In this document: in pieces, positions 7,554 through 57,333 of the stretch
Layout of the letters: the number at the start of each line of letters is the position of its first letter
Position numbering within the stretch: the stretch's first letter is position 1
Assembly (NCBI GenBank): GCA_051313645.2
Contig: JBNRSN020000001.1
Coordinates: forward strand, 174,158,001-174,222,000
DNA: 64,000 nucleotides
Reading direction: 5' to 3'
DNA from: Centroscyllium fabricii
Lineage: Eukaryota
The notes under the pieces: model-generated
Seen by the model: the letters and a program-made list of their open reading frames with translations, nothing else
What the model was told of the DNA's origin: nothing
The model's database searches: none
Made by a program: the position numbers and the translations under genes

Positions 7554-7694
7554 ATGGTGGGGGAATGGAAGTGAAGGAGAAGCCGAGACCCAGTCCCGAC
7601 TATTTGATGCAGCTGATGAAGGACAAGAAGCTGATGTCGAGCCTGCCCAACTTTTGCAGCATCTTCACGGACCTGGAGCGGCTGCTGGACGAAG
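7554..7694 (+). pseudogene. QKI: Captured QKI (quaking, STAR family) coding exon 1, QUA1 region; 1-nt deletion after MVG
   Basis: ATGGTGGGGGA-ATGGAAGTG... gives MVG(E)/[43 protein letters not shown], versus [50 protein letters not shown]. It ends GAAG|gtaggc at the native exon-1 donor (141 nt = 142-1). No KH-domain exons were found in the window. Confidence 0.9.
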
Positions 7695-9935: not shown

Positions 9936-9959
9936 TCAAACAACTCACCAACAGATTAC

Positions 9960-10066
9960 AATAGCAAAATACTGGAAATCTGGAATAACAGCAGAAAACG
10001 CTGGAAAACCTCGGCAGGCCAGGCAGCATCAGTGGAGAAAGAAACCCCGTTAATGTTTCAGGTCAA
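9960..10066 (-). mobile_element. Penelope-like element 3' terminus (family B), short remnant
   Basis: gcaaaatactggaaatctggaa...gctggaaaacctcggcaggccaggcagcatc...gttaatgtttcaggtc, homologous to the termini at 33848 and 38162. Confidence 0.6.
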
Positions 10067-18659: not shown

Positions 18660-18878
18660 CATCTCACACACATACTCATGGGCAATTTTTAGTATCTCCA
18701 ATTCACCTAACCTGCATATCTTTGGGTGGTGGGAGGAAACCGGAGTACCCGGAGGAAACCCACACGAACACGGGGAGAACATGCAAACTCCACGCAGAGG
18801 TGTTCCGGGCCAAGCAGGATTCGAACCCAGGAGCTCCTTATTGCGAGGCAGCAGTGCTAACCACTGCGCCATCGTGTC
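18660..18878 (-). mobile_element. HE1/V-SINE (tRNA-derived), 5' portion
   Basis: A box TGGCGCAGTGG and B box GGTTCGAATCC on the minus strand; V-domain tttgcatgttctccccgtgttcgtgtgggtttcctccggg. Confidence 0.85.
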
Positions 18879-21059
18879 AGCACTTAAGACAACAATATTG
18901 ATTTTAAAACTGAGAATGACAAGGAAGGTTGTAGCAGAGAAATTGTAGGTTTGAACTGCGAGAACAGCTGTATATCAGGCATGCTTTTTTTTAGATCCTA
19001 TTCAGAGTCTGAGGGAATCTTCCCAGTTATAGTCTTGGATTAAGAATTGAGTTCTTCAGTGGAAATGAAGTGTTTGGCACAAAAGAAGAAACTGAGTTTC
19101 TTGAAAGCAATTTTAGCAGCGGCCTGATTCTTGGAGGGCTCATAAAATTGTCTATCACTCTTCTCCAAATATTCGAAATATCCAATTTTTAGATGGAGGT
19201 GTGGCAGGGACCAGTAGTTTAATTATTAAAATTAAATTGTTAAGTGTATTCACGCCTTTCTTTGGCTTAGCGTCCAATTTCTTCCTTGTGCTTCCTCTGT
19301 GAAGTGCCTTGGGAAGGTTTTTTACATTAAAGGTGCTTTATGAATGGAAGTTGTTTTCCAAATGATGATTGTGGGCTGGCAGAGTTTTGTTCACTCTTTT
19401 GCCAAGCTGGATTATTGACGTACCCTCTTATGGTCTCTTCTCACACTGTGTTTCCAACTTTGAAAGGGAGAGGAGGGTAAATTAATATATTTTTTTCAAT
19501 ATCCCAATTTTAAGTTGCATTTCCACTTGCATAGAACTCTTTTTTTTGGCTCTTTAAAGATTGTGACCTTGTTGCTTAAATTATTAAATGTGGCTGCTCG
19601 AATGCTGTGAACTCCCATGGTACTAGGGGGAAAAATACTTCACATGAATGTCATGGGAGGCATCAAAGTGCTCTTTGTACTCCAGAGTTGCTGTGTGGAA
19701 AGTGATTGTTAAAAATGTATGTGGAATATACAAGGAAAAACTTTGAAGCTGTAATACTAAACTTGGTCAGTTCTATTCTGAATATTTCAGGGCAAAATAT
19801 GAAGGAAATTGCACATTTGCTTTTTAATTTTTTATCAGTTATTTTTAGATTTCAAAGTTGACTATTAAAGCACAATTTGTGAAGCATTTTACACGAAGGG
19901 AATTTAGATTTACATCCATGCTCTAGATCAAAACATGGATTTAGAAGTGCATCTGTGGTGACATTCCCATGCAAATAAAATATACAGGATGGTATAAGGT
20001 TTGAAAATATCAATGCTGTATTTATTTTTTGAGACATATTTACAAATTCAGTGCAATTTATAAAAAAAAAAAAAAAAAGCTGCTTGTACAGAGACAATCT
20101 TGAATGTTTCCATAATGATGTAACTGATTTAGTAATGTTGATGGATTTTTTTTTTGAAGATGTCAATTATTATATGAATCAAACTGTTGTGATTAAGTGT
20201 ATTGATAGTTAATACAAATGCTTAAACTGTTAAAACAACAAAAAATCTGTAGTTTTTTATTATAATAAATATTACTGGTTTGATTGGGGATACAGAAGTA
20301 CCCTGTACAAGCAGTTCAGTTTGTTTTAGCAGGCTATCTGTTTGACCTCAAGTTTCAAATGTAAATATCATCCAGTGTGCAGATATTCATGTGATGCTTT
20401 TTTGTTCTTTTGAAAAAGATGACATTTGTGCTGATGCCAAATTAGCTTGCTGCCAATTTTACATTAGAGGTGTAATGGTCTAGCAAGCTGGTTAAAATAA
20501 AATCTCAGTTTAATTCTTTTGGAATGGTGCCATATTCTCAAGGACAAAACAATATTTTTAAAACTGGCCAGTGAATGTAAAATTAGGAGGCGTAAGGGGG
20601 AAAAAATTGTCATCTGTCCAAGATTAATCAATATAAATGTCATGAATGCTACATTTCTAAATCCATGTTTTAATTAATTAAGGAAAAAGTACTGTACAAT
20701 ACAAAGCAGAGTTCTGTTTGTAATGTGTAAAATCACAACATTGAATAATTCCAGTGTTTACAGTCTAACATTTTAGGAATAGGTTATATGAATATAATGC
20801 ATTATCTTGGCTAGATTTTTACTTCAGTGTTGATGCTGCCACTTTTTGGCATTATCACATTGCAGTTGATGACAGCAGGTAATATGTTACTACCTGTATT
20901 AACATACATGAATATTTATGCAGCTGTTTGCAAGAAATGGGTATCATCAACCAGGCCTTGCTACTGCAGGTCATTCTGGGTTCTTATGACTAGGGTTCTA
21001 CCAGAAAATCTAAAACACACCGAAGTACCTCAATTTATGTTTGATTACAGAAACTAATA

Positions 21060-21588
21060 CAGGTACACAATCCCTTATCTGCAACTCCAAAAACCGAAAA
21101 GCTCCAAAAACCGAAGTTTTTCTTCAATTTATTTAAGAAAAAAATGATTTAAGCTGCAGCAGAAAAAACACGTTCCTACCGCGATTTCGTGCTGTTGATG
21201 CCGTGCTGAGGAAAAAAACGGCTCATCTCCTCCTGCAAACGGCCGGTCTCCCTCCTGCAAACGGCCGGTCTCCCTCCTGCAAACGGCCGGTCTCCCTCCT
21301 GCAAACGGCCGGTCTCTCCCTCCTGCAAATGGCCGGTCTCCCCCCCCCCCCCCCCCTGCAAGCGGCCGGTCTCCCTCCTGCAAACGGTCCGTCTCCCCCC
21401 CCCGTCCCCCCCCCCCCCCCTGCAAGCGGCCGGTCTCTCCCGCTTCAAACGACCGATATGCCGTTCCCCAACCGCGAGCTGGGCCGGAAACACGGAAAAG
21501 CGCATGCGCACTGGGGCCAACTCTCAAAACCGTATTTAACCGAAACCCGCCCGGTCCCGAGGTTTTCGGATAAAGGGTTGTGTACCTG
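21060..21588. mobile_element. Tigger/pogo-type MITE (family T2), copy 3, with internal ~23-bp minisatellite
   Basis: TA|CAGGTACACAATCCCTTATC ... GATAAAGGGTTGTGTACCTG|TA; (cctcctgcaaacggccggtctc)n at 21228-21440. Confidence 0.85.
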
Positions 21589-21913
21589 TACAACTATCAT
21601 CCTAATTACTTCAAAATTTGTTGTAAATTTCACTATTGTGTTTAACATAAGGTTGCTGATGCTAGTGTCGACATGTTCAGGAAATCCAAATTTGTTACAA
21701 TTGTAAATTAGTGTTTAGGTCATGGGTTCATAACCAATATTGTGACTTCAGAAATATTGAAATGTCATAATATTGCCAATTAATAGTTTATCACGGAGGT
21801 CTACAACATCTGATTGCCAGTGAGCACTTTTGCGAGAGGAAAGGAGTTTATTAAAAGAAAGAAGGTTAACAAATAAATGACATACAGCAGAGCAAGGCTT
21901 AACTGAAATACAT

Positions 21914-22019
21914 AATGTGGAGGTGCCGGTGTTGGACTGGGGTGGACAAATGCAAGAAGTCACACAACACCAGATTATAGTCCAACGGTTTTATTTTAAA
22001 TCACAAGCTTTCGGAGCGT
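21914..22019 (-). mobile_element. Penelope-like 3' terminal insertion (family A), no inverted arm
   Basis: Same terminus as 23692/26619/27646/57135; TSD CTGAAATACAT (11 bp). Confidence 0.75.
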
Positions 22020-22559
22020 CTGAAATACATTGACTGCAATGTACGTTTTACAGGGCAAGTCTCTTTTTGTTTACCTGGGGTGGAAAAGACCTCCAACGAA
22101 CTTGCTCAAGGTCTCCAGATTCTTCAGTTGTCATGGCATTGTTTTCAGAAAATTTGAATATTTTCATTTAGATTCAATGAATTCTTTTACACAAGCTTTA
22201 AAAAGAAACCCAGCAATTTATGTGCATTAGTTTAAGTTGCAGCTTACAGACCGTCCTTTTGTAAAACTTCAGGCCTTCACTGCTTGTTCTTAAATCCTGT
22301 TTGCTACATTGCTTCCAGTCACTCTAGAAGTTGTGTGTATTGCATTTGCCACAGATTATTTTATGGCAAAGTATGTGTAATATTGAAATGTACAATTAAA
22401 AGAGAGAGACTAGGATATTGAACAAATTGCATATGAGCAGAGGAAAATGTTGGATAGGGGAAAAACAGCTGTCCCATACAGTTGTGCCTTATACATCACT
22501 TGGAGAGACTCTTGACCCCTGAGATTAAAAAAAAGTTTCCTGGGAGAGACAAAAAAAAG

Positions 22560-23560
22560 TTAAGGGTCAATTTGGAAAAGAAAATCTGGCAAATTCCTCT
22601 CCGATCCCTCTAGGTGATCAACACTAATCCAGGAAAGCACATTGACCATAAATTATATTATTTGGTATTTGCTTGATGTGATCTCCGCCCCAGCCAGGAA
22701 CCAGTCCAGCTCTCTGAAGACACACACTACACAAGCCGGCAACCTGTTCCATAGGTCGACTATGGGAAAAGAAGAACCACTTAACTTTGAATCTATTCCT
22801 TCCCTAGTGTAATTTATACACGTGACTCCTGGTCTCCACCAACCTATCTGATTGAAATTATTTGTGCGCATACACATAATCCAAACCCTTCATTATTTTA
22901 GAGACCTCTATCACCCACCACATGTGTCGACTGAAGCTGGACAAATTATTCTAAATGAGGTCTAACCATTTTTTCTTTGTACAAGGCCTTGGTATGTTTT
23001 GTTTCACAATGGATAGTCCTGTGAATGCAGTCCAGCACCGTTTACTTTAGCTATAGCTTTACGGCATTGGCCGTGATTCTTTAGAGAGTTCTGAACTACA
23101 GGCTTTAGTTCTGTACCTTGTAGTATGTGAGTAAGCTTAGCACTAGTCATGTCCACCTGGAAAACACTGCACTTCTCCAAGATAAATACCATTTGCCAAA
23201 TGTGGTACCATTCCTACAACACCTCAATCTATTTGTTGTAGTTTAGTCTCCTACACAGTCCTAACACTTGCACAAATCTTAGTATTACCTGTAAACTTGC
23301 AGATCATTCCCCAATCCCTAACATAGATAGTAAAGCGCAAAGGCCCGAACACCAACCCTGTGGGACACCACTGGTAAGTGGTCTCAAAGGAGTCCTGCAG
23401 CCATTGATGACTTTCTGCCTATGGCATGCAGTCAATTCCTACTTTATCCACTAACAGCGATCCACTAATTCCACAAGATTCTATCTTGTAGTGAGGTATC
23501 TTATTTAATGCTTTCTCAAAATCCAGGTAAGATGTCATCTATCCACTCCTCCATTAACCT
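22560..23560 (-). mobile_element. Old, degenerate CR1 ORF2 fragment
   Basis: Minus-strand peptide remnants VDLWNRLPACVV..ELDWFL and HGQCRKAIAKVN; GVPQG-like stretch near 23360. Confidence 0.6.
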
Positions 23561-23691
23561 GGTGAATTCTTCATGAGGGTAACTAACTATTGTTGCATCT
23601 AGTTTAACTTCCAAGTCCAAAGTTTGTGTCAAATCAACTATCATAGCTTTTCAAATAATATGAATTTGTGGAGCTGTCTCTGATAATATCT

Positions 23692-24040
23692 ATGATGTGG
23701 AGGTGCCGGTGTTGGACTGGGGTGGACAAATGCAAGAAGTCACACAACACCAGATTATAGTCCAACAGTTTTATTTTAAATCACAAGCTTTCGGAGTTTT
23801 TGCCCCTTCGTCAGGTGAAAGAGAGAGACTGACTTGAAGAACGCACATATGGAACGAATATATGTGTGCTCTGTCTAGCTCTGCTAAGGTGAGATGTGGG
23901 CGAGATCGGATTTCTCCCTTCTATGTGCGTTCTTCAAGTCAGTCTCTCTCTTTCACCTGACGAAGGGGCAAAAGCTCCGAAAGCTTATGATTTAAAATAA
24001 AACTGTTGGACTATAATCTGGTGTTGTGTGACTTCTTGCA
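23692..24040. mobile_element. Fold-back Penelope-like insertion (family A) with hammerhead motifs on both strands
   Basis: 119-bp inverted arms (23731-23849 / 23922-24040, 2 mismatches), 39-nt unpaired tail, 13-bp TSD TCTGATAATATCT. Confidence 0.85.
23953..23990 (+). ncRNA. Minimal type I hammerhead ribozyme motif (mirror copy on minus strand 23781-23818)
   Basis: TCAC-CTGACGA-A-GGGGC-AAAA-GCTCC-GAAA-GCT-T-(G/A)TGA: conserved core, stem II, palindromic AGCT stem III, stem I TCAC/GTGA (perfect in the minus copy). Confidence 0.7.
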
Positions 24041-24404
24041 TCTGATAATATCTGGCATTGTAGGACTCAAATTTAGCTCGATGATAATAGAGTAGATGGC
24101 TGATTTTATTTTTAAATCAAAGATGTAGCAATGAGGGGCTATAGATTGTGTTAAAGCTTAACATTACAAACACTGACAATTTCTGTTGTTTTTTTTCCGA
24201 GCTTGAAATCTGCCCCTTCTATTTTTGGTTTAACAAGCTAACCTAGAAACCTAATTAGAATGTGTTGATACTGCAGTGATGGGCCCTGAGACGCAAACTT
24301 TGGTAGAAAGGCATGAATTGTTGAACTTTTACAGATACGATGAGGCATGGACCTTGTATAATTATGATGGAATATAAACACTAAAGATGAAGCAATTTTT
24401 AAGA

Positions 24405-25062
24405 ACATAAACATAAGATCATAAAAAATAGGTGCAGGGATAGGCCACTTGGCCCCTCGAGCCTGCTCTGCCATTCAATAAGATCATGTCTGATCTAGGG
24501 CTCAAAGCCACTTCCCAGCTCACTCTAACCTTTCACTCCCTTATCTTGCAAACATTTGTCTGTCCCCACTTTAAAGTATTTAATGACCCAGCCTCCACAT
24601 CTCTCTGGGGGCAGAGAATTCCACAAATTTACGACCCTCAGCGAAGAAGTTCCTCCTCATCTCAGTTCTAAAAGGGCAACCCTTAGTTTATTCTAAAACT
24701 ATGCCCCCAAGTTCTAGATTTTCCCCATGAGGGGAAACACCCTCTCTGCATCTACCCTGTTGAGCCCCCTCAGCATCTTGTATGTTTCGATAAGATCACC
24801 TCTCATTCATCTAAATTCCAATGAGTATAGGCCCAGCCTGCTCAACCTTTCCTCATAAGTCAACCCCCTCATCTCTGGAATTAACCTAGTGAATCGTCTC
24901 TGAACTGTCTCCAATGCAAGTATATCCTTCCTTAAATAAGGAGACCAAAACTGTACGCAGCACTCGAGGTGTGGTCTCACCAATACCCTGTACAGTTCTA
25001 GCAGGACTTCCCAGCTTTTATACTCCAACCCCCTTGAAATAGAGGCCAACATTCCATTTGCC
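24405..25062 (-). mobile_element. CR1 LINE 3' fragment
   Basis: ORF 24807-25052 LLELYRVLVRPHLECCVQFWSPYLRKDILALETVQRRFTRLIP; CR1 tail at 24405-24490. Confidence 0.9.
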
Positions 25063-25065
25063 TTG

Positions 25066-25310
25066 TTGTGGCATAGTGGTTAGCACTGTTGCCTTGCAGC
25101 ACCAGAGACCCGGGTTCAAATCCGGCCTCGGGTACTATCTGTGTGGAGTTTGCACATTTTCCCCGTGTCTGCGTGGCTTTCCTCCGGGTGCTCCGGTTTC
25201 CTCCCACAGTCCAAAGATGTGCGGGTTAGGTTGATTGGCCAGGATAAATTGACCCTTAGTGTTAGGGGGATTAAATATGTGGGGTTACAGGCTAGGGTGG
25301 ATATGTGTAG
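25066..25310 (+). mobile_element. HE1/V-SINE
   Basis: GTGGCATAGTGGTTAGCAC (A box), GGTTCAAATCC (B box), V-domain. Confidence 0.85.
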
Positions 25311-25609
25311 GTGCAGGCTGGATATGTGGTCTTTGAGATATTTATCCTGGGGGGGGGGAGGGGAGCGACTCGGTGGGCCGGGCAGCATTGGAAGCAAGCA
25401 CATCAAACATAGGAAACAAAATCTGTCTGTTGCAAGGTAGTAACATATTGGAGTTGCAATTATATTCATTAGTAGTTTAGAACTAATACATCTCCCATTG
25501 AGTTGCTTATGGTGAGTTAGAATTACTATTTGGGTCGGGGGTGGGGTGGGTGCACATTTCCAGGAAAATGTTAATTAGATAGCTTTGTTTCAGAAATAAC
25601 GGCCCAAAC

Positions 25610-26340
25610 ATTAGCCTCGGAGGCTTCCTGCGCGTGTATGCCTCCGAGGTCCACTTACCCTGCGCTCCTGCCGTTTTCCAATTCTGCGATGTGAAGTCCC
25701 GATTTGGAGTGTTGCTTCAGGCTCCAGGCGCCGTGCTGAGGCAACTCAGCGACGTAGTTTGTGCGAGAGCTCGCGTGGGACCACGTGGTCCACGGGGAGC
25801 CAATGAATGGAAGGAATCCTCCAGTCATAACTTTAACAGAGAGATCTGTGTAAGTTATGAAAAGGAAGAGCCTCAAAAACACATTAAACAGTAAAATAAA
25901 TGTTTAAAACCCCACATTTTTTAACATTACTCTAACATAAATTACTGATTTTAAACAAAAAATAAAATTTTTGAAATTTAAGAAGTTTTTAACTGCCCTA
26001 AAAATACTTACCTGTCTTTAAAGTTTAAAAATATTAAAAACCTGTTGAAAATGACATGCATTCTATAAAATAAAGACTTACCTGCTAAAAAGGGGTTATT
26101 ATGGCTGATATTTTCAGGCGTAAAATCTTCAATACTTACCCCGATTTAAAAATAAACCTGAAAAAAATCAGAAGTGCACTGTGCACCTCCTGGTGCGCAG
26201 GCCAACGCGATTCAGCTCGCGACCCCCCGCTGGCCGCCTTCGGAATTGCAGGTTTCCCAGGGAAATGGTGTCCATTTGCAATTCCAGGGCCGTACGCGTG
26301 AGTACCCACTGCGGCCCTGCGGTCATCGGAATTTCTGTCC
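25610..26340. mobile_element. PIF/Harbinger-like MITE
   Basis: CpG-rich arms flanking an AT-rich core; ends cggcccaaacatt... and ...ggaatttctgtccc|aat. Confidence 0.5.
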
Positions 26341-26618
26341 CAATATTTTTGGGATGGATACTGTAATTTAAGACATGATGTGTGGTAAGTGTCACATGCT
26401 TGGGAGGAAAAGTGATTTTGAAACCATGGTTCTCAAAGCTCTCTGCTACTGGGGTTTTCCTTGCATCATGTCTGGGTCTGTTGTAGACTAATTGATAGAG
26501 ATTGATTATTATGATTAGTCAACACTCCATTGTCGTTTCATGCAAATATCAGAATGGTACAAGGTAAACTAGATGGACCTTGGTCTTTTCTTGTCTAGCA
26601 ATTTCTATGTTCCTATGA

Positions 26619-26808
26619 TTGTAAGAAGTCATTCAACACCAGGTTATAGTCCAACAGTTTTATTTGAAATCACAAGCTTTCGGAGCGCTGAGGAAGGAGC
26701 AGCGCTCCGAAAGCTTGTGATTTCAAATAAAACTGTTGGACTATAACCTGGTGTTGAGTGACTTCTTACAATTGTCCACCCCAGTCCAACACCGGCACCT
26801 CCACATCA
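26619..26808. mobile_element. Fold-back Penelope-like insertion (family A) in the tail of a CR1-like remnant
   Basis: ~72-bp inverted arms, ~36-nt tail, TSD TATGTTCCTATGA (13 bp), core CTGAGGA-A-GGAGC-AGC-GCTCC-GAAAGCTTGTGA at 26688-26720. Confidence 0.85.
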
Positions 26809-27645
26809 TATGTTCCTATGAGTGAATTTAGAAAAAAGTTTGTGGAGATTACGAGAGGTCATAAATTAACTGATTGGTTTCTGGAAAATAAATAAATGTT
26901 TTCTTTACCCATTGCAGATTGATGAATGAAGAAGTAAATAAATACCACAGTTAAATTTAGTACATTTCTGCCTTTAATAAAGGGCAACAGCTTTACCTTT
27001 ACTTGTCATCTTTTTGGGGTTGAAGTTTTATAGTAACAAATTAAGAAAAGATCAAGATAATTAACATTTTTGCTTTTTTTAAAATCAAATATCTATAGAA
27101 CAGTACCTAATATTACTAAAATGTTCCACTTAAATACATATGTTTAAATCAATACTTTTATGATTAACTTCCTTCCAACCTTGAATAATAGTACAGTCCT
27201 TCCAGAAGTTGCTATTTGCTGATGTGAACCGCGCTTATTTTTCAGTTCTGAGTATAATCGTAACTAAAAGAAAAGTAGCCACTAATACCACTGAGGACAC
27301 GCACCGGTTGTGAGGAAAAAGCGTGCGTTTATAAGGGTCCGTATTTTCCGATGCCTACGGGCTGTGTACGCGCTGTGTACACACCCGTAGGGACATTGGA
27401 AATGCCGGTTTCAGGCATGTGAAGCGCCTGCCCTGGAGAAAGGCCACTGAAAGCCCGTAGAAATCTTTGCTTTCAAAATGATGTCAAAAAGTTGGAGTTC
27501 ATGTTTGTCCTGGTGTTTTGTGTTGAATAAGTTCGAATTACCCTAAAAATAATTTCTCTCTCGTAATTTGTCATTGGAGGGAATGGGGTTCACAAAACAT
27601 GCTGATTGTTTTGTGAATGGCCAGTCTTGCTGTCAATCAATTTCT

Positions 27646-27790
27646 ATGATGTGGAGGTGCCGGTGTTGGACTGGGGTGGACAAATGTAAGAAGTCACACA
27701 ACACCAGGTTATAGTCCAACAGTTTTATTTGAAATCACAAGCTTTCGGAGCGTTGCTCCTTCATCACCAGATGTTGTGTGACTTCTTGCA
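27646..27790. mobile_element. Penelope-like insertion (family A) with short inverted arm
   Basis: TSD T(C/T)AATCAATTTCT (13 bp); ~20-bp inverted end tgttgtgtgacttcttgca. Confidence 0.8.
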
Positions 27791-28719
27791 TTAATCAATT
27801 TCTAGAAACTGGTGTATGCTGGGATTTGGAGGCTGCTACCCTGTTAAGTCGTTGAAGTCGATATGTATCTCTAGGATTCTGTATGACCTCTTGGCTCATG
27901 TTGGGTGATCTGGCTAGAGGCATTTTTTCAGCCACAAATGCTTTGAAGAGTTGAATTTGATCATTTTCTTGTAAATTTTATATTTTTAAAATTTCCATTA
28001 TGTTGCAAACCTTATTTTCAGTTTAGTGGATAACTCAAGGTGATAGTCAGGAAATTTTTCAAGCAATATTTTGTGATTTGATTGGTTTGCTTTTTTAATT
28101 CCTAGCTATTACTGACCATTTTTGATATTTTTACAAACTAAGATTGCTGCTTTTTATTCCTACTTACTGATGGGTACATTTCTTACGTGTTCAGTTGTGA
28201 GTTGTTGCTGGTTGATTAACATAACATTTGAGCCAATTGAGCAAGTTTGATGCCCACGTGTGATTTACAAAATGCATGCATTTTTCTATAATTCCATTTA
28301 AGACCCCAAAGTCATTTTGCTAAGTAAACACAAGGTCAGACCAATCGGAGGTTAATTGTTTGAATAGAGAACTTTATAGGTTGGAATGTTCTTGTCAGCT
28401 TTTGGTTGCAGTTCAGAAGCATCAGTATCAAAATGTGGCATTTGTGTGCACAGGAGCTTTATAGAAAATAGTTATACACAGTGCGGTACATCACACTTTG
28501 TTATACTTTTTGAAAAAGAATCTTAAAATGTTGTGCCTCTGAGCTAAAGCCTGAAAGTGAACATTTTAATTTGCAAAGTTATCTGACGAAACAAACTGAG
28601 TAACCCGAGGCTCTGTTTCTTAAAAATGTGTTGTTTTGCTAAAAGGACACATCCATTTTTGTGGGAAAGTAATGCAATGTGCAATACATCGCCTAACAGC
28701 ATTCATACAATTCAAAGAG

Positions 28720-29165: not shown

Positions 29166-29611
29166 TGAACTTATCATGAGCAATGCCACAGGGAGCTAAT
29201 ATTAATAAAATATCAGTAGAAATGTCACTAACTGATGGGTTACTGCTGTGAGGAGTATTGTGTGTGGTCAATACTTGTTTTTTTAGCTTTTTCATTTCTT
29301 AGGTAATTGTAAGGGATCCAACTGCATGACTTTGCAGTGATAGAATTTATTTTATTGACTCATCTAGAGCAAAAGTGGAAATTTTGCATGCTGTAACCTT
29401 GTACAGGTTGAAGTTCGTTAATCCGGCAGGGTCGGGACCAGGCCCGTGCCGGAATACTGAAAAACCCGAACGAATGAAGCTGTTCCGAGCGCATGCGCGG
29501 ACCATTCAAAATGGCCGCGCACATGCGCAGAACATTGGAAATGGCTGCAGCACGCACAGACCAGTGCAGGTGGCCGCAGCGCGCGGGTGGAGGCAGAGCA
29601 CAGAGCTGTAG

Positions 29612-30572
29612 TGTTACCTATAACTAGTTTTTCAGCCTTAGGGTGGGCGGAACAATTGTCCAGAACCAAGACTATTTTACAATTTGAGTCAAGGCCAACA
29701 CTTTCGCAATGTGCCTGTGACTCTGGCACAAAATGCTTCACATACCACTGAAGAAAAATTTCACTCGTCATCCATCCTTTCTTATTCCCCCGATAAATGC
29801 CGGGAAGTTGCTAACACCCTTGAAAGCACGTGGGTTCACACTTTTTCCGATCATGAGCAGTTTGCACCTATGAGTTCCGGCAGCATTACTGCAGCCAAGT
29901 ACAGTTACTCTCGCCTTGGAACCCTTCACACCGGATGGTGCCTCCTCAGTGTCTGCAGCCAATGTTCTCTTTGGCATGCATTTCCAATACAGAGCTGTTT
30001 CGTCCACATTGTAAACTTGTTCAGGTGATAATCTCTCAGCTGCAACTTACCTGGCGAATTCATCCACAAATGCCGTGGCTGCTTCTGTGTCTGCACTTTT
30101 CTTCTCAACGCACACGCGGTACAAGCTAATGCCGTGCCTCTTTTTAAATCTGTGCAGCCAGCCAACAGAATATTCAAAATCGTCTTGAATGTTGAATTCT
30201 CTGTGGGATATCTTCGCCTGTGCTATGATCATCTCTCCAGAAATGCAGCCTGACTCCACAGTGTGAAACTGCTTGAACCACTGCATGAGAGCACACTCCA
30301 CGTCAGCTTGCTTGCCTTCCCGTAATGTCTTGCGTGATGTGATCACCGTTTTACTTTCTGTGTCAGTGAAGAACTTTCTAATTTTATCTTTGTTTTTTAA
30401 TATCGTGCACAGTAGATGAGCCAACACTGTACTGCTCGCACAAGGCTCTTAGTGATGTTCTGCTGTCCAGTTTTTTCAATAACTCAACCTTTTGCAACAA
30501 CGTTAATGACACACGCTTACGCTTCCCAGGATTACCACAGGTATCACCACCTGCTGACCTCTTAGGTGCCAT
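29612..30572 (-). pseudogene. Tigger/Jerky-like transposase (CENP-B-type HTH domains + DDE_1), frameshifted and C-terminally deleted
   Basis: MAPKRS..KRKRVSLTLLQKVELLKKLD..YSVGSSTVHDIKK / ALMQWF..ISGEMIIAQAK..SVGWLHRFKKRHGI / VYNVDETALYWK..RVTVLGCSNAAGTH / MTSEIFLQWY..VLVLDNCSAHP; two frameshifts, one stop, third catalytic Asp region missing. Confidence 0.92.
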
Positions 30573-30659
30573 TTGGAAGGGTAAATTATAGGCCGAAATA
30601 ACCACAATAAATTGGGTTAGAAATCGTGCAGGACCACTGAAGATGCTTCAGTGATATGA

Positions 30660-32695
30660 CTCTCTGCTGGATGGAGCTCTCTCTCTCTCTGCTGGATGGA
30701 GAGCTCTCTCTGTGCTGGATGGAGAGCTCTCTCTGTGCTGGATGGAGCTCTCTCTCTGTGCTGGATGGAGCTCTCTCTCTGTGCTGGATGGAGCTCTCTC
30801 TCTGTGCTGGATGGAGCTCTCTCTGTGCTGGATGGAGCTCTCTCTCTGCTGGATGGAGCTCTCTCTCTCTCTCTGTGCTGGATGGAGCTCTCTCTCTCTG
30901 TGCTGGATGGAGCTCTCTCTCTCTGTGCTGGATGGAGCTCTCTCTCTCTGCTGGATGGAGCTCTCTCTCTCTGCTGGATGGAGCTCTCTCTCTCTGCTGG
31001 ATGGAGCTCTCTCTCTCTGCTGGATGGAGCTCTCTCTCTCTGCTGGATGGAGCTCTCTCTCTGCTGGATGGAGCTCCCTCTCTGCTGGATGGAGAGCTCT
31101 CTCTGCTGGATGGAGAGCTCTCTCTGCTGGATGAAGCTCTCTCTCTGTGCTGGATGGAGAGCTCTCTCTGCGCTGGATGGAGAGCTCTCTGCTGGATGGA
31201 GCTCTCTCTCTCTCTGCTGGATGGAGCTCTCTCTCTCTGTGCTGGATGGAGCTCTCTCTCTGTGCTGGATGGAGCTCTCTCTCTCTGTGCTGGATGGAGC
31301 TCTCTCTCTCTGTGCTGGATGGAGCTCTCTCTCTCTGTGCTGGATGGAGCTCTCTCTCTCTGTGCTGGATGGAGCTCTCTCTCTCTGTGCTGGATGGAGC
31401 TCTCTCTCTCTGTGCTGGATGGATCTCTCTCTCTGTGCTGGATGGAGCTCTCCCTCTCTGCTGGATGGAGCTCTCTGTGCTGGATGGAGAGCTCTCTCTG
31501 TGCTGGATGAAGCTCTCTCTCTGTGCTGGATGAAGCTCTCTCTCTGTGCTGGATGGAGAGCTCTCTCTGTGCTGGATGGAGCTCTCTCTCTCTGTGCTGG
31601 ATGGAGCTCTCTCTCTCTCTGCTGGATGGAGCTCTCTCTCTCTGCTGGATGGAGCTCTCTCTCTCTGCTGGATGGAGCTCTCTCTCTCTGCTGGATGGAG
31701 CTCTCTCTGTGCTGGATGGAGCGCTCTCTCTCTCTCTGTGCTGGATGGAGCGCTCTCTCTCTGTGCTGGATGGAGCTCTCTGTGCTGGATGGAGCTCTCT
31801 GTGCTGGATGGAGCTCTCTGTGCTGGATGGAGCTCTCTGTGCTGGATGGAGCTCTCTGTGCTGGATGGAGCTCTCTCTCTGTGCTGGATGGAGCTCTCTC
31901 TCTGTGCTGGATGGAGCTCTCTCTCTGTGCTGGATGGAGCTCTCTCTGTGCTGGATGGAGCTATCTCTGTGCTGGATGGAGCTCTCTCTGTGCTGGATGG
32001 AGCTCTCTCTGTGCTGGATGGAGCTCTCTCTGTGCTGGATGGAGCTCTCTCTCTGCTGGATGGAGCTCTCTCTCTGCTGGATGGAGCTCTCTCTGTGCTG
32101 GATGGAGCTCTCTCTCTGTGCTGGATGGAGCTCTCTCTCTGTGCTGGATGGAGCTCTCTCTCTGTGCTGGATGGAGCTCTCTCTCTGTGCTGGATGGAGC
32201 TCTCTCTCTGTGCTGGATGGAGCTCTCTCTCTGTGCTGGATGGAGCTCTCCCTCTCTGCTGGATGGAGCTCTCTGTGCTGGATGGAGGGCTCTCTCTGTG
32301 CTGGATGAAGCTCTCTCTCTGTGCTGGATGAAGCTCTCTCTCTGTGCTGGATGGAGAGCTCTCTCTGTGCTGGATGGAGAGCTCTCTCTGTGCTGGATGG
32401 AGAGCTCTCTCTGCTGGATGGAGAGCTCTCTCTGTGCTGGATGGGGAGCTCTCTCTCTCTCTGTGCTGGATGGAGCTCTCTCTCTCTCTGTGCTGGATGG
32501 AGCTCTCTCTCTCTCTGTGCTGGATGGAGCTCTCTCTCTGTGCTGGATGGAGAGCTCTCTCTGTGCTGGATGGAGCTCTCTCTCTCTCTGTGCTGGATGG
32601 AGCTCTCTCTCTCTCTCTCTGTGCTGAATGGAGCTCTCTCTCTCTCTCTGTGCTGGATGGAGCTCTCTCTCTCTCTCTGCTGGATGGAGCTCTGC
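30660..32695. repeat. ~2-kb minisatellite (GCTGGATGGAGC(TC)nTGT)n, unit ~19-30 bp
   Basis: Directly visible tandem array with a variable (TC)n tract, upstream of the transposase start inside the Tigger element. Confidence 0.98.
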
Positions 32696-33847
32696 AGTTT
32701 GGGGTAAAGCACTCCACGTGGATGGGGCACTCTGCAAGATGGAGCTCTGTAGCTCGCCGGTAAAGTAGTCTGTGAGGCCTCAGCGGATTGGAGCACTCTG
32801 GGGACATGCCCCAGAAGGTCAGGCATCGTTGTGGACACACCCCAGGTCGGGTGCAGTTGCAGCCACGCCGTCTGGACACACACCGGATGTTCGGGTGCTG
32901 CTGAAGCCACGCCATCGGGACACACCCCAGAAGTTCGGGTGCGGCTGAAGCCACGCTGTCGGGACCAGTGCGCATTCGGGAAAGGCCCCGGGAGCGAGCC
33001 CGGTCCAACACTTCACGAGGCCCGAGCTTCATGTCAGGTACGGGGTGTTTTGTAAAGTGCAGGAAGCGTCGAAGAGCGCCGCTGCGCAGGCCAGTCGGGG
33101 ATTGTGGACGGTGAGGAGCACCAGTGCGCATGCGCCTACCACTCGGGGATATCTGTGCCGCACGTCTGAAGCTGCCGGTTTTTCGGGTGCCGGATTAACG
33201 AACTTCAACCTGTATTGTGGTTATATGCTTTAAGTGGTTTTTCCAAAACAGCTCTGTCGTATACTTTATTTACCTCATGCACACGGGACAACTATCAAGT
33301 ACCAATTTATCTCATTGGTGTGGAACTCTTTATAGCCCATGTTGTGTGTGCCAGTTATAGTGTGTGGAATTTTGATAAAATTAAATATAAACATTTTAAT
33401 GAGAATTATTGAAAGAACAACTGCTTTAATCTCATTATATAGTTGTATCGTGTTTCTGCAGAGGCCAGAGCCTGTATATTGGGATTAAAGCACTTACCCT
33501 TTCAATGATTCTCAGGGAAATTTACATTATATTCTTCTACTACATCTATGTGACTTGGGCACAGTAGTGTATTAGCAATGGTACTACACTGGTAGGTTTT
33601 GAGTTAAAATCCCATGTAAAATTGAATTCAATAGTTGATGAGCTGCCAGGCCATACACAACGTTTTCTAAGGATGAATTGAGACTTTTAAATTTACGTAC
33701 CTGCCTTTTGCTTTCTGCACGTGTGAGATATAAAACTTATATTTATTTGGTGTCCTGGCATCTGAGTTGGTCAGGTGCAAGTGTGACATTGAGGTGTGAC
33801 GATGTACATTAAATGAAAGTTTTTATATGTACTAATGGACTTCGCAT

Positions 33848-35245
33848 AAATAAAAACAGAAAATGCTGGAAATACTCAGCATGTCGGGCAGCATCTGTAG
33901 CGAGAGAAATAGAGTTAGTGGGGGGGGATTTTCCTCGGGCCGTGAGGGCGGGTTTACAGCGGGGCGTGGGGGGTAAAATCGCAAATCCGCTGGGCGGGAA
34001 GCCACCCCGCCGGATCCCCGCCGATTTCCGATTTTCCTCGGGCGGGTTTTGCCGCCCCGAATGTTTCCCGCTGGTCGCCGGCGGGGATGCAGATTGAGGT
34101 CGTTGAGGGCACTTAATTGGATGGGTAATCCTATTTTAAGGGCCCTGAGCTATTTTGACCCCCTTCCCACCCAAAACCCGCCTGGTAGGAACCCCATCGT
34201 AAAAAAGGTGGTGGGCACCCAGTCGACTGGGTGTCTGCCAACTTCAAGGCATGGGCACAGCACCCACACAGCAGCTTGCTAGCCTTCACCATGCTGGAGG
34301 TGCAGCTGCCACCCAAGGGTGGAAGACGTCAGAGCCCCAAAACAAAGAAATCACTCGCCTTTAAATCCCTGCTATTCATACAGAGATCGGCATGCTGCGC
34401 TGTCTGTGAGCCAAGCTGTCAATCACCCAGGGGATCAGTTTCTGTTTACATTCCATTGAAACCACAAACAAACAGTAAGTGAGTTCAACTGTTGTTTTGT
34501 AGTTTTAGTGTTCCCTTTCATAATGTGACTCACAAAGGCTATATCAACATGGAAACAAAGGAACCATTTGAGCACTGACTATTCAGGCCTGTCAATCAAC
34601 AGCCCGCCCCACTCAAACTGTGAATGAAAAGGGCTGAGTTCCCACCCAATAGTGTGTATTGGAAGCCCAGCAGACCTGCCGGGATTTAATTGGCCACTTG
34701 AGCCAAAATCGTTCGGGCCTCCCAGGTCCTTGGGCGGGTGGGACAGAAAGCTGACCCGCCCAAAACCCGACAGCTTCCCACACCTTTAAAAAAAATTACC
34801 TCCAATGTTTCAGATCGATGACCCTTCATCAGAACTGGAAAAAGTGTTGGAGATGTAACCGGTTTTTAAGCAAGGCAAAAGGAGATGGTAATGGAACAAG
34901 TTAAGAAACAAAAGATGACTCTTGCCCCATTACCTTTTGCCTTGCACCATCATCCCTTTTGTCTCTTAATCTCTCCTGCCTTCCATCCTATCACAGACCC
35001 TCCCTTTTGTCCTTTCCTCCCCTCCCCCCTCCCCCCTCCCCCCTCCCCCCTCTCCCCTCTCCCTGCCCCTACACTTGCTTAAAAACCTGTTACATCTCCA
35101 ACTTTTTCGAGTTCTAACAAAGGGTCATCGACCTGAAATGTTAACTCTGTTTCTCTCTCCACAGATGCTGCCTGACCTGCTGAATATTTCCAGCATCTTC
35201 TGTTTTTATTTCAGATTTCCAGCATCTGCAGTATTTTGCTTTTGT
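33848..35245. mobile_element. Fold-back Penelope-like insertion (family B), left arm interrupted by a MITE
   Basis: Left arm 33848-33919 + 34804-34920 is inverted relative to 34925-35210; ~35-nt unpaired tail; flanks aatggacttcgc / aatagacttctc (imperfect ~12-bp TSD). Confidence 0.75.
33920..34803. mobile_element. PIF/Harbinger-like MITE inserted in the Penelope terminus
   Basis: GGGGGGGGATTTT ... AAAATTACCTCC; GGCGGG subterminal motifs; flanks AGT/AAT restore gagttaatgtttcag when it is removed. Confidence 0.65.
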
Positions 35246-35689: not shown

Positions 35690-37325
35690 AAGATTATCAT
35701 GAAGGATTTTCCATATCACCAGATAAGTGAGGAAAGTAATTAGGCTCCTAATCCATCCATCTAGAATTGCAGCATTCAATTTGTTCATCAGAGAATGCGG
35801 AGTCAGGGGACAAGTAGCAGAATGGATTGCTGGCTGGCTTCAGGACAGAAAGCAGAGAGTAGGAGTAAAGGGAAGGTATTCATAGTGGCAGAAGATGGGT
35901 AATGGTGTTCCATAAGGATCAGTGTTGGGACCACTACTGTTCACAATTTACATTACTGAGTTAGACTTTGGAATCAAAAACATAATTTTTAAATTTGTAG
36001 ATGATACCAAATTTGGGGGGGGGGGGGGATAGTCAATACTGAGGAGGACTGCAACAAATTACAGGAGAACATTAATAAACTTGCAGAATGGGCAAATAAT
36101 TGGCAAATGAAGTTCAACACAGGTAAATGTGAGGTATTACATTTTGGTGGGAAGAATAGGGAGGTCACTTATTACAGCACTTGGAGGGTCCTAGTCTAGG
36201 TGGGGTAGAGGAGCAAAGGAATCTCTGAATACAAATACACAAATCACTGAAAGTTGCAACACTGGTTAGCAAGGGCATTAAAATGCAAACCAAGCACGAG
36301 GGTTTATTTCCAGAGGGATAGAAATGAAAAATAGGGAAGTTATGCTAAACCTGTATCGAACCTTGGTTAGACCACACTTGGAGCACTGCATGCAGTTCTG
36401 GTCACCATATTAGAAAAACAATATAGAGGCACTGGAGAGGGTGCAGAGACGATTTACAAGGATGATACCAGAAAGGCCCGGTATACCTATCAGGAAAGGA
36501 TGAACAGGCTGGGTCTCTCTTTTGAAAAGAGAAGGCTGAGGGGTGACCTAATAGAGGTCTTTATAATTATGAAAGGTTAAAATAGAGTGGATACAGAGAG
36601 AATGTTTCCACTTGTGGGGAAGAGCATAACTAGAGGCCATCAATATAAGATAGTCACCAAGCAATCCAATAGGGAATTCCGAAGAAACCTCTTTACATAA
36701 AGAGTGGTGAGAATGTGGAACTCGCTACCACAGGGAGTAGTTGAAGCAAATAGTATCGATGCATTTAAGGGGAGGCTAGACAAGCATATGAGGGAAAAGG
36801 GAATAGTGGGTTATGGTGATAGATTTAGATAGTAACATAGAAACATAGAAGATAGGAGCAGGAGTAGGCCATTCGGCCCTTCGAGCCTACTCCGCCATTC
36901 AACGAGATCATGGCTGATCATCCAAACCCAGCACCCCGTCCCTGCCTTGTCCCCATATCCCTTGATCCCTATCGAGCCTGCACCGACACATATCCCACCC
37001 TAACCCCACATCTTCAATCCCCTAACACGAAGGGTCAATTTATCCTGGCCAATCAACCTAACCCGCATATCTTTGGACTGTGGGAGGAAACCGGAGCACC
37101 CGGAGGAAACCCACGCAGACACGGGGAGAATGTGCAAACTCCACACAGATAGTACCCGAGGCCGGATTTGAACCCGGGTCTCTAGTGCTGTAAGGCAACA
37201 GTGTTAACCACTATGCCACCGTGCCGCCCAGAGTTGAGGAAAGATGGGAGGAAGTTTGTGTGGAGCAAAATTGGCGGCATGGACTGGTTGGACCGAATGA
37301 CCTGTTTCGGTGCCATATATCCTAT
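35690..37325 (+). mobile_element. CR1 LINE ORF2 3' half (degenerate), interrupted by an HE1 SINE
   Basis: RT remnants (gv.*GSVLGPLLFTIYI; KFVDDTK; WQMKFNT.KC; LYRTLVRPHLEHC.QFWSP) and CR1 tail at 37270-37325. Confidence 0.85.
36833..37229 (-). mobile_element. Full-length HE1/V-SINE
   Basis: Head GGGCGGCACGGTGGCATAGTGG, B box, V-domain, CR1-derived tail with (CTATGTTT)n. Confidence 0.9.
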
Positions 37326-38161: not shown

Positions 38162-39172
38162 AAATAAAAACAGAAGTTGCTGGAAATACTCAGCAGGGCA
38201 GGCAGCATCTGTAGAGAGAGAAACAATTAATGTTTCAGGTCGGTGACCCTTCGTCAGAACTGGAAAAAGTTGGAGATGGTACAGGTTTTTAAGGCATTGG
38301 AGGGGAGGAAATAACAAAAGGGAGGGTCTGTGATGGGGTGGAAGGCAGGAGAGATTAAAAGACAAAAGGGATGATGGTGCAAGGCAAAAGGAGATGGTAA
38401 TGGGACAAGTTAAGAAACAAAAGATGACTCCAGATGAAATGTAAATGGCAATGGCAGATTGATTATCAGCTGCCATGTGAGAAGACAAATGAGGGGCAGA
38501 GGTCATGGTCTGAAATTGTTGAACTCAATGTTGAGTCCAGAAGGCTGTAACGTGCCAAATCGAAAGATGAGGTGCTGTTCCTTGAGCTTACGTTGAGCTT
38601 CATTGGAACAGTGTAAGAGGCTGAGGACGGAGAGGTCAAAGTGGGAATGGAGTGGAGAATTGAAGTGACAGGTGACCGGACACTCAGTCACCCTTATGGG
38701 CTGAATGGAGATGTTCCGCAAAGCGGTCACCCAATCTGCGTTTGCTCTTCCCAGTGTAGAGGAGATCACACCGTGAGCAGTGAATACAGTGTACTAAATT
38801 GCAAGAAGCACAAGTAAATCGCTGTTTCACCTGGAAAGGGATGTTTGGGGTCTTGGACAGTGGGAAGGGAGGAGGTTAAAGGGCAGGTGTTGCATCTCCT
38901 GTGCTTGCACAGGAAGGGGAAGGGTTGTTGGTGATACAGGAGTGGACCAGGGTGTTGCGGAGAGAGCGGCTCCTTCGGATTACTGAAAGGGGAGGTGAGG
39001 GGAAGATGTGTTTGGTGGTGGGATCACGCTGGAAATGGCAGAGGATGCTACGTTGAATGTGGAGGCTGGTGGGGTGAAAGGTGAGGATAAGGGGAACCCT
39101 ATCGTGGTTCCGGGAGGGAGGGGAAGGGGTGAGAGCAGAAGTGCAGGAAATAGAATGGACATGGTCAAAGGC
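38162..39172 (-). mobile_element. Penelope-like element 3' part with GIY-YIG endonuclease remnant and hammerhead motif
   Basis: Minus-strand DRVPLILTFHP, LVHCIHCSRCDLLYTGKSKRRLGDRFAEH (GIY-YIG-like), PVTCHFNS..H, GTLQPSGLN; AGTT-CTGACGA-A-GGGTC-ACC-GACCT-GAAACAT-T-AATT at 38225-38261. Confidence 0.88.
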
Positions 39173-39414
39173 CGTTACAGTATTCATGGGAGAACTTATT
39201 GCAGCACAGAATTGCCTCCTTGTTCCACTAACAGCAACTGAGCAAAAGAGGAATTTTCATGACCACTTGGTTGGAACCTTTTCACAATAGTAACCACTGA
39301 GTGAAACCACTACCCTAGAAAAAATTGTACCTAATCTTAATTAGCTACAATTTGAAATATCATTCTCATCAATAAAAAATGGATATTTGTTCTTTCCACA
39401 ATTCTTCTCTTCCC

Positions 39415-39980: not shown

Positions 39981-41110
39981 TATTGCCCAACCCTAGTTGT
40001 CCTTCAGAAGGTGGTGGTGAGTTGCCTTCTTGAACCGCCACAGTCTATGTGGTGAAGGTATTCCCACAGTGCTGTTGGGTAGGGAATTCCAGGACTTTGA
40101 CCCAGCGATGATGAAGGACGACAATATATTTTCAAGTCAGCATGGTGTGTGACTTCGAGAGGAACTTGGAGGTGGTGGTGTTCCCATGCGCCTACTGCCC
40201 TTGACCACCGAGTTGGTAGAGATGCTGTCGAAGAAGCCTTGGCGGATTGCTGCAGTGCATCTTGTAGATGACGCACACAGCAGCCACATTGCACCAGTGG
40301 TGGCGGGAGTGAATGTTTAAAGTTGTAGATGAGGTGCCAATCAAGTGGACTGCTTTATCTTGGATGGCATTGAGCTTCGACTGTTGTTGGAGCTGCACTC
40401 ATCCAGGCAAGTGGAAAGTATTCCATCACACTCCTAACTTGTGTCTTTTATAGGTGACAGAAAGGCTTTGGGGTGTCAGGAGGTGAGTCACTCATCACAG
40501 AATACCCAACCTCTGACCTGCTCTTGTAGCCACCGTATTTATGTGGCTTATCCAGTTAATTGTCTGGTCAATGGAAACCCCCAGGATGTTGGTGGGGGAT
40601 TAGATGATTGTAATGCCATTGAATGTCAAGTGGATATGGTTAGACACTCTTGTTGGAGATGGTCATTGCCTGGCACTCGTGTGGCATGAGTGTTACTTGT
40701 CATCAGCCCAAGCCTGGATATTGTCCAGGCCTTGCTGCATGTGGGCACGGACTGCTTCATTATCTGAGGAATTGCGAATGGAACTGAACAAGATGCAATC
40801 GTCAGCGAACAGCTGAACTTATGATGGAGGGAAAGTCATTGATGAAGCAGCTGAAGATGGTTGGGCCTAGGACACTGCCCTGAGGAGCTCCTACAGCGAT
40901 GTCCTGGGGCTGAGATGATTGGCCTCCAGCAACCACAACCATCTTCCTTTGTGCTAGGTATGACTCCAGCCAGTGGAGAGTTTTTACCCCGATTCCCATT
41001 GACTTCACTTTTGCTGGGGCTCCTTGGTGCCACATTCTGTCAAATGCTACCTTGATGTCACTCTCCGCTCACCTCACGTCTGGAATTCAGCTCTTTTGTC
41101 CATGTTTGAT
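39980..41110 (-). mobile_element. Second CR1-clade LINE family, 3' fragment
   Basis: TLHWLESYLAQRKMVVV..GAPQGSVLGPTIFSCFIND; KLNAIQDKAVHLIG; its 3' terminus type also appears at 47425-47630 (+). Confidence 0.85.
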
Positions 41111-53138: not shown

Positions 53139-53540
53139 TAGAAACATAGAAACATAGAAACTAGGATCAGGAGTAGGCCATTCGGCCCTTCGAGCCTGCG
53201 CCGCCACTCAATGAGATCATGGCCGATCATCCAAACCCAGTACCCCGCCCCTGCCCTCCCCCCATATCCCTCGATCCCTATCGAGCCTGCACCGACACAT
53301 ATCCCACCCTATCCCCGTAACCCCACATATTCAATCCCCCTAACACTAAGGGTCAATTTATCCTGGCCAATCAACCTAACCCGCACATCTTTGGACTGTG
53401 GGAGGAAACCGGAGCACCCGGAGGAAACCCACGCAGACACGGGGAGAATGTGCAAACTCCACACAGATAGTACCCGAGGCTGGATTTGAACCCGGGTCTC
53501 CAGTGCTGTGAGGCAACCGTGCTAACCACTGTGCCACCTA
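53139..53540 (-). mobile_element. Full-length HE1/V-SINE
   Basis: Near-identical to 36833-37229; (CTATGTTT)n tail. Confidence 0.9.
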
Positions 53541-57134: not shown

Positions 57135-57333
57135 ATGATGTGGAGGTGCCGTTGGACTGGGGTGGACAAATGTAATAAGTCACACAACACCAGGCATAGT
57201 CACAACAGTTTTATTTGAAATCACAAGCTTTCAGAGCATAGCTCCTTCGTCTGATGAAGGAGCAACGCTCCGAAAGCTTGTGATTTTAGATAAAACTGTT
57301 GGACTATAACCTGGTGTTGTGTGACTTCTTGCA
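57135..57333. mobile_element. Fold-back Penelope-like insertion (family A)
   Basis: ~80-bp inverted arms; CTGATGA-A-GGAGC-AAC-GCTCC-GAAAGCTTGTGA at 57251-57283; flanks ccagttagttt / ctagttagatt. Confidence 0.8.

Follow-up and report, generated by a model that had tools for sequence, protein, structure and literature searches.

A fold-back insertion with a hammerhead motif on either strand, probably a dead-on-arrival copy of a Penelope-like element

The insertion at positions 23692-24040 folds back on itself and carries a hammerhead ribozyme motif on either strand; the question it raises is whether such a hairpin is a genetic unit in its own right or a by-product of the way in which another element inserts. 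It is studied here within the window, the whole 64-kb stretch of DNA that was analysed. The insertion is called element B and its siblings in the window A, C, D and E. It is read below as a dead-on-arrival insertion of an endonuclease-positive Penelope-like element (PLE), with a probability of about 0.88.

Structure of element B

Element B and its target-site duplication (TSD) are made up of the following parts.

23679..23691, no strand, left copy of the TSD, 13 bp, 77% A+T; the two 13-mers are identical, organisms C and E have one copy, at the orthologous site without the insertion
23692..23730, minus strand, unpaired 39-nt tail (3' extension) of the main pseudo-LTR (pLTR) copy; common to five of five window copies
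23731..23849, minus strand, left arm, the 3' part of the main pLTR copy; the element's sense is the minus strand
23850..23921, minus strand, 72-nt loop, the main copy's family sequence from further upstream; the 5' truncation point is 23921
23922..24040, plus strand, right arm, an inverted, more truncated and tail-less pLTR copy that stops at the tail base, as placed by arm pairing and sibling alignment
24041..24053, no strand, right copy of the TSD, 13 bp, identical to the left 13-mer

The geometry given in the first-pass annotation is exact: arms of 119 bp with two mismatches, a 72-nt loop, a 39-nt tail and a 13-bp TSD. Pairing inward from 23731 and 24040, the mismatches fall at 23784/23987 and 23797/23974. 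The plus strand has a folding energy of -241.3 kcal/mol (z = -29.5), and none of 100 shuffles folds equally well. The tail is 69% A+C on the element's sense strand and its end is the element's 3' terminus. Element B is made up of a high-copy family's final 230 nt (loop, arm and tail) and of an inverted 119-nt copy that does not include the tail.

Empty site and age

Contigs from four of the 21 listed runs were aligned to 22750-24420. X1 (49,345 contigs aligned to the locus) and X3 (45,353) are from organism A and from the same study, X1 possibly being the source sample; X6 (3,413) is from organism C and X17 (2,681) from organism E, which makes two organisms and two studies.

Contig 29 of X6 carries 23582-23678 as its letters 394-489 and 24041-24418 as its letters 12-393; the two segments are contiguous, with a single target copy. 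Contig 15 of X17 covers 23491-23691 and 24083-24402, with 28 letters between them as against 29 in the window. Both contigs have far more than 31 letters on either side of the empty site, and their flanks differ from the window by approximately 4-5% (in X6, 22 other letters and 13 gaps over 475). Since the empty site has one target copy in organisms C and E, the 13-bp duplication is a true TSD. Element B is a young, lineage-specific insertion which is missing from these two organisms.

Near-perfect hairpins assemble poorly, and the inverted arm could be a false duplication introduced by the assembly. No listed contig spans element B; the X1 contigs that enter it from the two flanks reach in by only 21 and 19 letters, which falls short of the 31-letter bridging rule. 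However, these contigs enter on both sides with zero differences, as does one X3 contig on the left side. The two mismatches between the arms, the asymmetric tail and the exact TSD, borne out by empty sites in two organisms, also speak against a false duplication, and four siblings obey the same end rules. An assembly artefact is consequently the most improbable of the explanations considered, with a chance close to nil.

Sibling copies and family-wide ends

Four siblings were found by blastn of element B against the 64-kb window.

21912..22019, minus strand, sibling A, approximately 108 bp, tail present, no inverted arm, 11-bp TSD; truncated inside stem II
26618..26809, plus strand, sibling C, its main copy cut short at C3; inverted arm 73 bp long with 1 mismatch, 9-nt loop, TSD 11-13 bp
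27646..27792, minus strand, sibling D, its main copy cut short at U4; inverted arm 21 bp long with 1 mismatch, 12-bp TSD
57135..57333, minus strand, sibling E, older; arms of approximately 80 and 83 bp that meet in the hammerhead core, no loop

The TSD of sibling E (11-12 bp) has decayed and has 2 mismatches; in the alignment of this copy, an indel pair counted as mismatches accounts for part of its 16 differing columns. A 6-kb stretch (21900-27800) holds four of the five family copies. Siblings C and D form an inverted pair of 122 bp at 97%, 834 nt apart.

The tail end is the same in all five window copies, while the 5' ends differ. TSDs are 11-13 bp long and 64-83% A+T in each of the five, and an adjacent inverted, 5'-truncated copy is present in four. 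In these four fold-backs the inverted arm always stops within 2 nt of the tail base; the tail is found on one end only and measures 37-39 nt (36 in sibling E, after a 3-nt deletion). A longer copy of the family was sought in the 64-kb window and none was found.

The first-pass annotation had asked whether loop and arm length recur, as expected of a family, or vary, as expected of an insertion by-product. They vary. The 72-nt loop is absent from all four siblings in the window, the inverted arms measure none, 73, 21 and approximately 80-83 bp, and many junctions are seen elsewhere.

Hammerhead motifs

A complete hammerhead string had been described in each arm. The core and the palindrome are indeed present in both; the string as a whole is intact in neither. 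Both arms have the CUGANGA/GAAA core, an extra A after A9 and the G10.1-C11.1 pair, and stem III is in each case the loopless AGCT palindrome that had been reported.

23781..23818, minus strand, minimal type I hammerhead of the main copy; C3 at 23814, stem I of 4 bp intact, stem II down to 4 bp
23953..23990, plus strand, minimal type I hammerhead of the inverted copy; C3 at 23957, stem II of 5 bp, first stem I pair broken

The minus strand motif has lost its fifth stem II pair (23797 is T); by hammerhead numbering, its predicted cut would fall between 23785 and 23784. On the plus strand, ATGA is found in place of GTGA (23987 is A), which turns the core-adjacent stem I pair into a C-A mismatch. 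Both damaging changes are private to element B, being absent from the other window copies. The strand that a host pre-mRNA would carry is the plus strand, with the broken stem I. Hammerheads with U at position 17, as here, cleave more slowly than those with C or A.

A minimal-hammerhead descriptor gave four matches in the 64 kb, all of them in this family, compared with an average of 0.095 and no more than 1 per shuffle in 200 dinucleotide shuffles; it is a post hoc descriptor, written once the motif had already been seen. When stem I was required to be at least 4 bp, two matches were obtained in the 64 kb and none in all 200 shuffles. An Rfam scan of 20000-28000 at E <= 5 gave no hammerhead match. 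Three other Rfam matches in this region were rejected, as all score under their gathering thresholds. A weak U6-like match is located at 24297-24401 (plus strand; 21.2 bits against a gathering threshold of 44, E 0.096), 250 nt from element B; it is either a decayed pseudogene or a chance match.

Among the window arms that reach the sites concerned, GAAA is kept in eight of eight and AGCT in eight of eight; position 7 varies between C, G and T among family copies. The kept core letters reflect descent from active parents and not selection on these copies.

The claim that the hairpin masks the ribozyme stands up in the fold: the pairing probability of stem II is below 1e-6 in the folded ensemble, and forcing stem II within the hairpin costs 27.4 kcal/mol on the plus strand and 24.6 kcal/mol on the minus strand. 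On either strand, read from the sequence, the hammerhead-bearing arm is transcribed after its own complement; it therefore meets a ready partner while it is being made. Minimal hammerheads need a dimer, and with the two motifs on opposite strands none can form in cis. By nearest-neighbour energy, computed without tertiary terms, a double hammerhead reaches -14.3 kcal/mol and two monomers -16.8 kcal/mol. The masked ribozyme holds as geometry; any function of the two motifs is unlikely.

Every main copy in the window runs past the predicted cut site, so the templates were uncut there. Cervera and de la Pena (PMC4209133) report that such minimal motifs are inactive as monomers and that dimer activity is low in vitro. 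Frangieh et al. (PMC11167929) report that the hammerhead of an Anolis PLE cut only in the presence of protein, was dispensable for insertion and produced no read ends at its cut site.

Copies and junctions at other loci

Among the loose ends listed, position 23692 is where contigs pile up: at least 455 in X3, at least 44 in X6 and at least 76 in X17. The flanks at these ends are unrelated to each other and AT-rich (agreement 0.35-0.39). In X17, the listed loose ends show a second preferred end at 23735 (at least 40 contigs) and its mirror at 24036 (at least 30). Summed depth in X1 is approximately 9 million in the tail bin and approximately 11 in the flanks, a ratio that is not a copy number.

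Further copies of the loop sequence occur at other loci in organism A, and contigs there diverge at 23863 and 23900. Since it recurs with other continuations, the loop is ordinary upstream sequence of the family. The bin 23870-23925, within which most of the loop lies, has a depth of 0 in organisms C and E.

In all, 391 joints were tabulated. Among the 15 listed, 14 are skips from left arm to right arm at differing coordinates and one is a tail repeat; nine of the 14 skips cluster from 23824-23828 to 23945-23950, just upstream of hammerhead stem I, so that the listed junctions are not evenly distributed. The clustered skips turn 7-14 nt upstream of the hammerhead core, and some reach 15-60 times the single-locus depth in X1. 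The listed skips are indicative only, as their sides are 21-28 letters long at 82% likeness and a third of the X1 contigs fit two places. Element B's own junction (23921/23922) differs from the clustered skips; the table gives departures from the reference only, and the recurrence of that junction lies outside such counts. The tail repeat is a joint from 23725 to 23692, in which a 34-nt tail segment is tandemly repeated with 6 letters between (nine contigs in X1, seven in X3).

These joints bear on a different origin, in which element B would propagate itself as a non-autonomous fold-back unit of a retrozyme-like or MITE-like kind; it would be transcribed, its RNA would be processed by the hammerheads, and PLE proteins would insert it again. 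The clustering of nine of the 14 skips among the 15 joints listed, of 391, may indicate that a recurrent class of short hairpins exists, and the cores look intact in both arms of an insertion that is young and has a TSD. PLE pLTRs can mobilise other sequence in trans (PMC3846280), and animal retrozymes have been proposed as PLE derivatives (bioRxiv 2026.07.22.740005). However, element B's junction is outside the clustered class, and none of the four siblings has its loop or its arm length. Transcription reaches each hammerhead only after its complement, and the motif ends up buried. The two are also placed head to head on opposite strands, while those of retrozymes are same-strand tandems (PMC7229834; bioRxiv 2026.07.22.740005). 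The retrozyme-like unit suggested by the first-pass annotation is not supported, as neither of the two retrozyme features examined, tandem same-strand monomers and a fixed unit, is found in element B. Such a propagating unit is very unlikely.

Probable assignment to Penelope-like elements

PLE insertions are described as 5'-truncated copies, often with an adjacent inverted copy and with a 30-40-bp tail on one end (PMC8557442, PMC3846280, PMC8969392). The first-pass annotation had pointed to this group, and the features it named (a minimal type I hammerhead, an inverted 5'-truncated repeat, a short tail and a TSD) are all present. Five of six hallmarks of endonuclease-positive PLEs are found at the locus and among its siblings: a TSD with an empty site, a fixed 3' and variable 5' end, the inverted copy, the tail and the hammerhead.

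No RT or GIY-YIG sequence or ORF of element B's own family was seen in the window; membership in the PLEs consequently rests on non-coding hallmarks. A single metagenome match (L001) to a 19-nt tail pattern was set aside as chance: it lies in a long ORF on a GC-rich contig of bacterial type which has no blastn similarity to the window.

A second family and other repeats in the window

The window contains a second PLE-like family and a number of other mobile elements.

38190-39256, minus strand, 3' fragment of the second PLE-like family; broken ORF, CxxC-like stretch, hammerhead-like core (C3 at 38257)
34808-35138, a further copy of the second family, likewise folded back, with arms of 67 bp (88%) at 34808-34874 and 35074-35138
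29421-30647, minus strand, broken pogo/Tigger-type transposase; CENP-B_N, HTH_Tnp_Tc5 and DDE_1

The ORF remnant of the second family has a weak GIY-YIG match (E 0.017, below the Pfam cut-off), and an Atlas search with the same remnant gave no supporting match (best score 0.80). In this family a hammerhead of the same layout as in element B is joined to a GIY-YIG-like remnant, which favours the PLE reading of element B. A CxxC linker would point to the Neptune clade (PMC8557442). The second family is folded back as well, which suggests that folding back belongs to the insertion process and not to one unit. An internal inversion junction is found within its stretch at 34808-35200, and shorter pieces lie at 33848-33917 and 9955-10064.

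A tandem array of 23-25-nt units at approximately 30610-32700 adjoins the pogo/Tigger-type transposase. At 54058-56202, direct repeats of 220 nt (93%) flank a minus strand frame of 334 aa with a CCHC-like stretch; this looks like a deleted LTR retrotransposon and has no Pfam match. SINE-like, near-identical repeats (95-97%) are located at 25068-25291, 37019-37220 and 53314-53538, and also at 18698-18878 and 46251-46429. Many LINE 3' fragments are present in the window, with RVT_1 at 40805-41068 and 36005-36196.

Formation of the inverted arm

The protein of PAc (Anolis carolinensis Poseidon) cuts and extends both strands and prefers AT-rich DNA; its two start sites flank the tail, one of them lying 111-118 nt after the stem II start (PMC11167929). 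By analogy with this and other published PLE biochemistry, a GIY-YIG/RT protein would nick both strands of an AT-rich target, 11-13 bp apart. cDNA synthesis would begin at two internal start sites bounding the tail, one nick priming at the tail end and the second at the tail base. The two products would stop early, at 230 and 119 nt, and would then be joined head to head. The two-nick priming step in this scheme is drawn from another species and possibly from another clade. The hammerheads would be passengers from the parent pLTR, already with one mutation each and locked in the hairpin on either strand; they are most likely inactive at this locus.

A narrower version has two-ended priming carried out by a dimeric PLE RT, with the arms sometimes taken from different RNA templates and the uncleaved hammerhead acting as the main stop to synthesis. 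Six of the nine arm ends in the window fall between C3 and stem II, nine of the 14 listed skips at other loci turn 7-14 nt upstream of the core, and the inverted-arm alleles of siblings D and E hint at templates from different subfamilies. This version is tentative and rather unlikely to hold in full. A narrow check of the literature on twin priming in Penelope and on PLE structures since 2024 found no such statement. At the junction of sibling D (27764-27772), approximately 8 scrambled letters are the antisense of an A/B-type allele and not of D's main arm; they are possibly a sign of a second template.

Alternatively, within the same PLE by-product, the first cDNA could have folded back and primed synthesis on itself to give the inverted arm, after which the endonuclease would have resolved the hairpin at the base of the tail; a second nick would then have had no part in priming. 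The junction of sibling C, with a 3-nt inverted microhomology and a 9-nt loop, fits such a snap-back. The two arms of sibling C share three alleles that are absent from other copies, and both differences between the arms of element B are private. Self-priming and endonuclease-mediated resolution are the explanations given in PMC3846280 and PMC8557442, and Arkhipova et al. 2013 favour self-priming for inverted junctions. On the other hand, PAc extends both strands from two start sites that define the tail (PMC11167929). A polymorphic site is G in sibling A, in element B and in the inverted arms of D and E, and A in C and in the main arms of D and E; such a difference between inverted and main arms is not predicted by copying of the first strand. 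This discordance rests on two copies, D and E, the second of which is decayed. Self-priming is a plausible route, although its odds are below even.

Element B is a clean example of how PLEs integrate: its empty site is verified, its two outer ends are fixed and its junction varies. A family-wide comparison of arm haplotypes could tell two-nick priming from self-priming.

Host gene setting

7565..7692, plus strand, first coding exon of a Quaking/QKI-type STAR gene, GT donor at 7693; Pfam STAR_dimer, E 2.4e-14

This exon also matches Quaking chains in PDB (E 1.5e-17). From the ATG at 7554, which is one base off the coding frame, reading ends at a stop codon, and an in-frame ATG is found at 7565; translation may truly start downstream, or one base may be wrong or deleted. 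Among 260 plus strand frames of at least 45 aa after 7692, none matches STAR or KH; the search passed over 12 frames of the tandem array and could miss a short exon.

Element B is approximately 16 kb downstream of the exon. The intronic setting proposed earlier agrees with this: the insertion is most likely located about 16 kb into a long first intron of the QKI-type gene. The tail-bearing copy is antisense to the gene, which is presumably transcribed through element B.

Long near-perfect intronic duplexes are generic ADAR substrates. With a near-perfect duplex of 119 bp some 16 kb downstream of the first exon's splice donor, the hairpin might have been co-opted to regulate the QKI-type gene, either as an ADAR or Dicer substrate or as a conditional ribozyme, with effects on splicing, circularisation or termination. 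Co-option is nonetheless scarcely probable. The element is absent from organisms C and E and so is not conserved; stem I of the sense-strand ribozyme is broken; and the same intron has many other inverted pairs, such as siblings C and D. Metazoan minimal hammerheads are described as inactive as monomers and low in activity as dimers (PMC4209133), and that of PAc needed protein (PMC11167929). None of the 21 listed runs is recorded as RNA, and three that may be RNA contain 0.05-0.09 of the sequence words; A-to-G counts from contigs of a high-copy repeat have no bearing on editing. In the pre-mRNA of the QKI-type gene, element B is probably neutral and one of several repeat-derived inverted pairs.

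Comparison with known systems

The layout of element B has already been described in papers from 2013 on, and the element is one young, probably neutral copy. A retrozyme or a regulatory reading would matter far more if it were true; the evidence points away from both.

Element B resembles the complex PLE insertions described in PMC3846280 and PMC8557442 in its head-to-head inverted copy, its one-ended tail (37-39 nt in this family), its strong 5' truncation and the hammerhead in its pLTR. Its family also shares with them a short TSD, which is 11-13 bp here and 8-10 bp in the Adineta examples of these papers. Unlike the complex insertions as described there, element B has the last 230 nt only, with no ORF and no direct tandem pLTR; consequently, the whole insertion is one hairpin.

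With the metazoan PLE hammerheads of PMC4209133, element B has in common the CUGANGA/GAAA core, the extra nucleotide between 9 and 10.1, the G10.1-C11.1 pair and the palindromic 15.2-16.2; a 4-bp helix I is shared by the minus strand copy only. Helix II is 4-5 bp in element B and 7-8 bp in the Schistosoma families covered by that paper. In contrast to those hammerheads, each copy in element B has one damaging change, and position 17 is U. Hammerhead pairs 100-700 bp apart on opposite strands have already been reported in the same source.

Like PAc (PMC11167929), element B has an AC-rich 3' end, 115 nt past the stem II start in element B and 111-118 nt past it in PAc. It also resembles PAc in having a tail bounded by two fixed ends and in AT-rich targets, a likeness by description. 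The ORF of PAc begins at stem II in the account given there, whereas element B has no ATG at this place.

Animal non-LTR retrozymes (PMC7229834; bioRxiv 2026.07.22.740005) are likewise short and non-coding, carry a type I hammerhead, are related to PLEs and have a TSD of more than 4 bp. According to the same two sources, they consist of head-to-tail monomers of fixed length with ribozymes on the same strand, release circular RNAs and accumulate as linear and circular forms of 170-400 nt. Element B is instead an inverted pair of variable length, with masked ribozymes on opposite strands.
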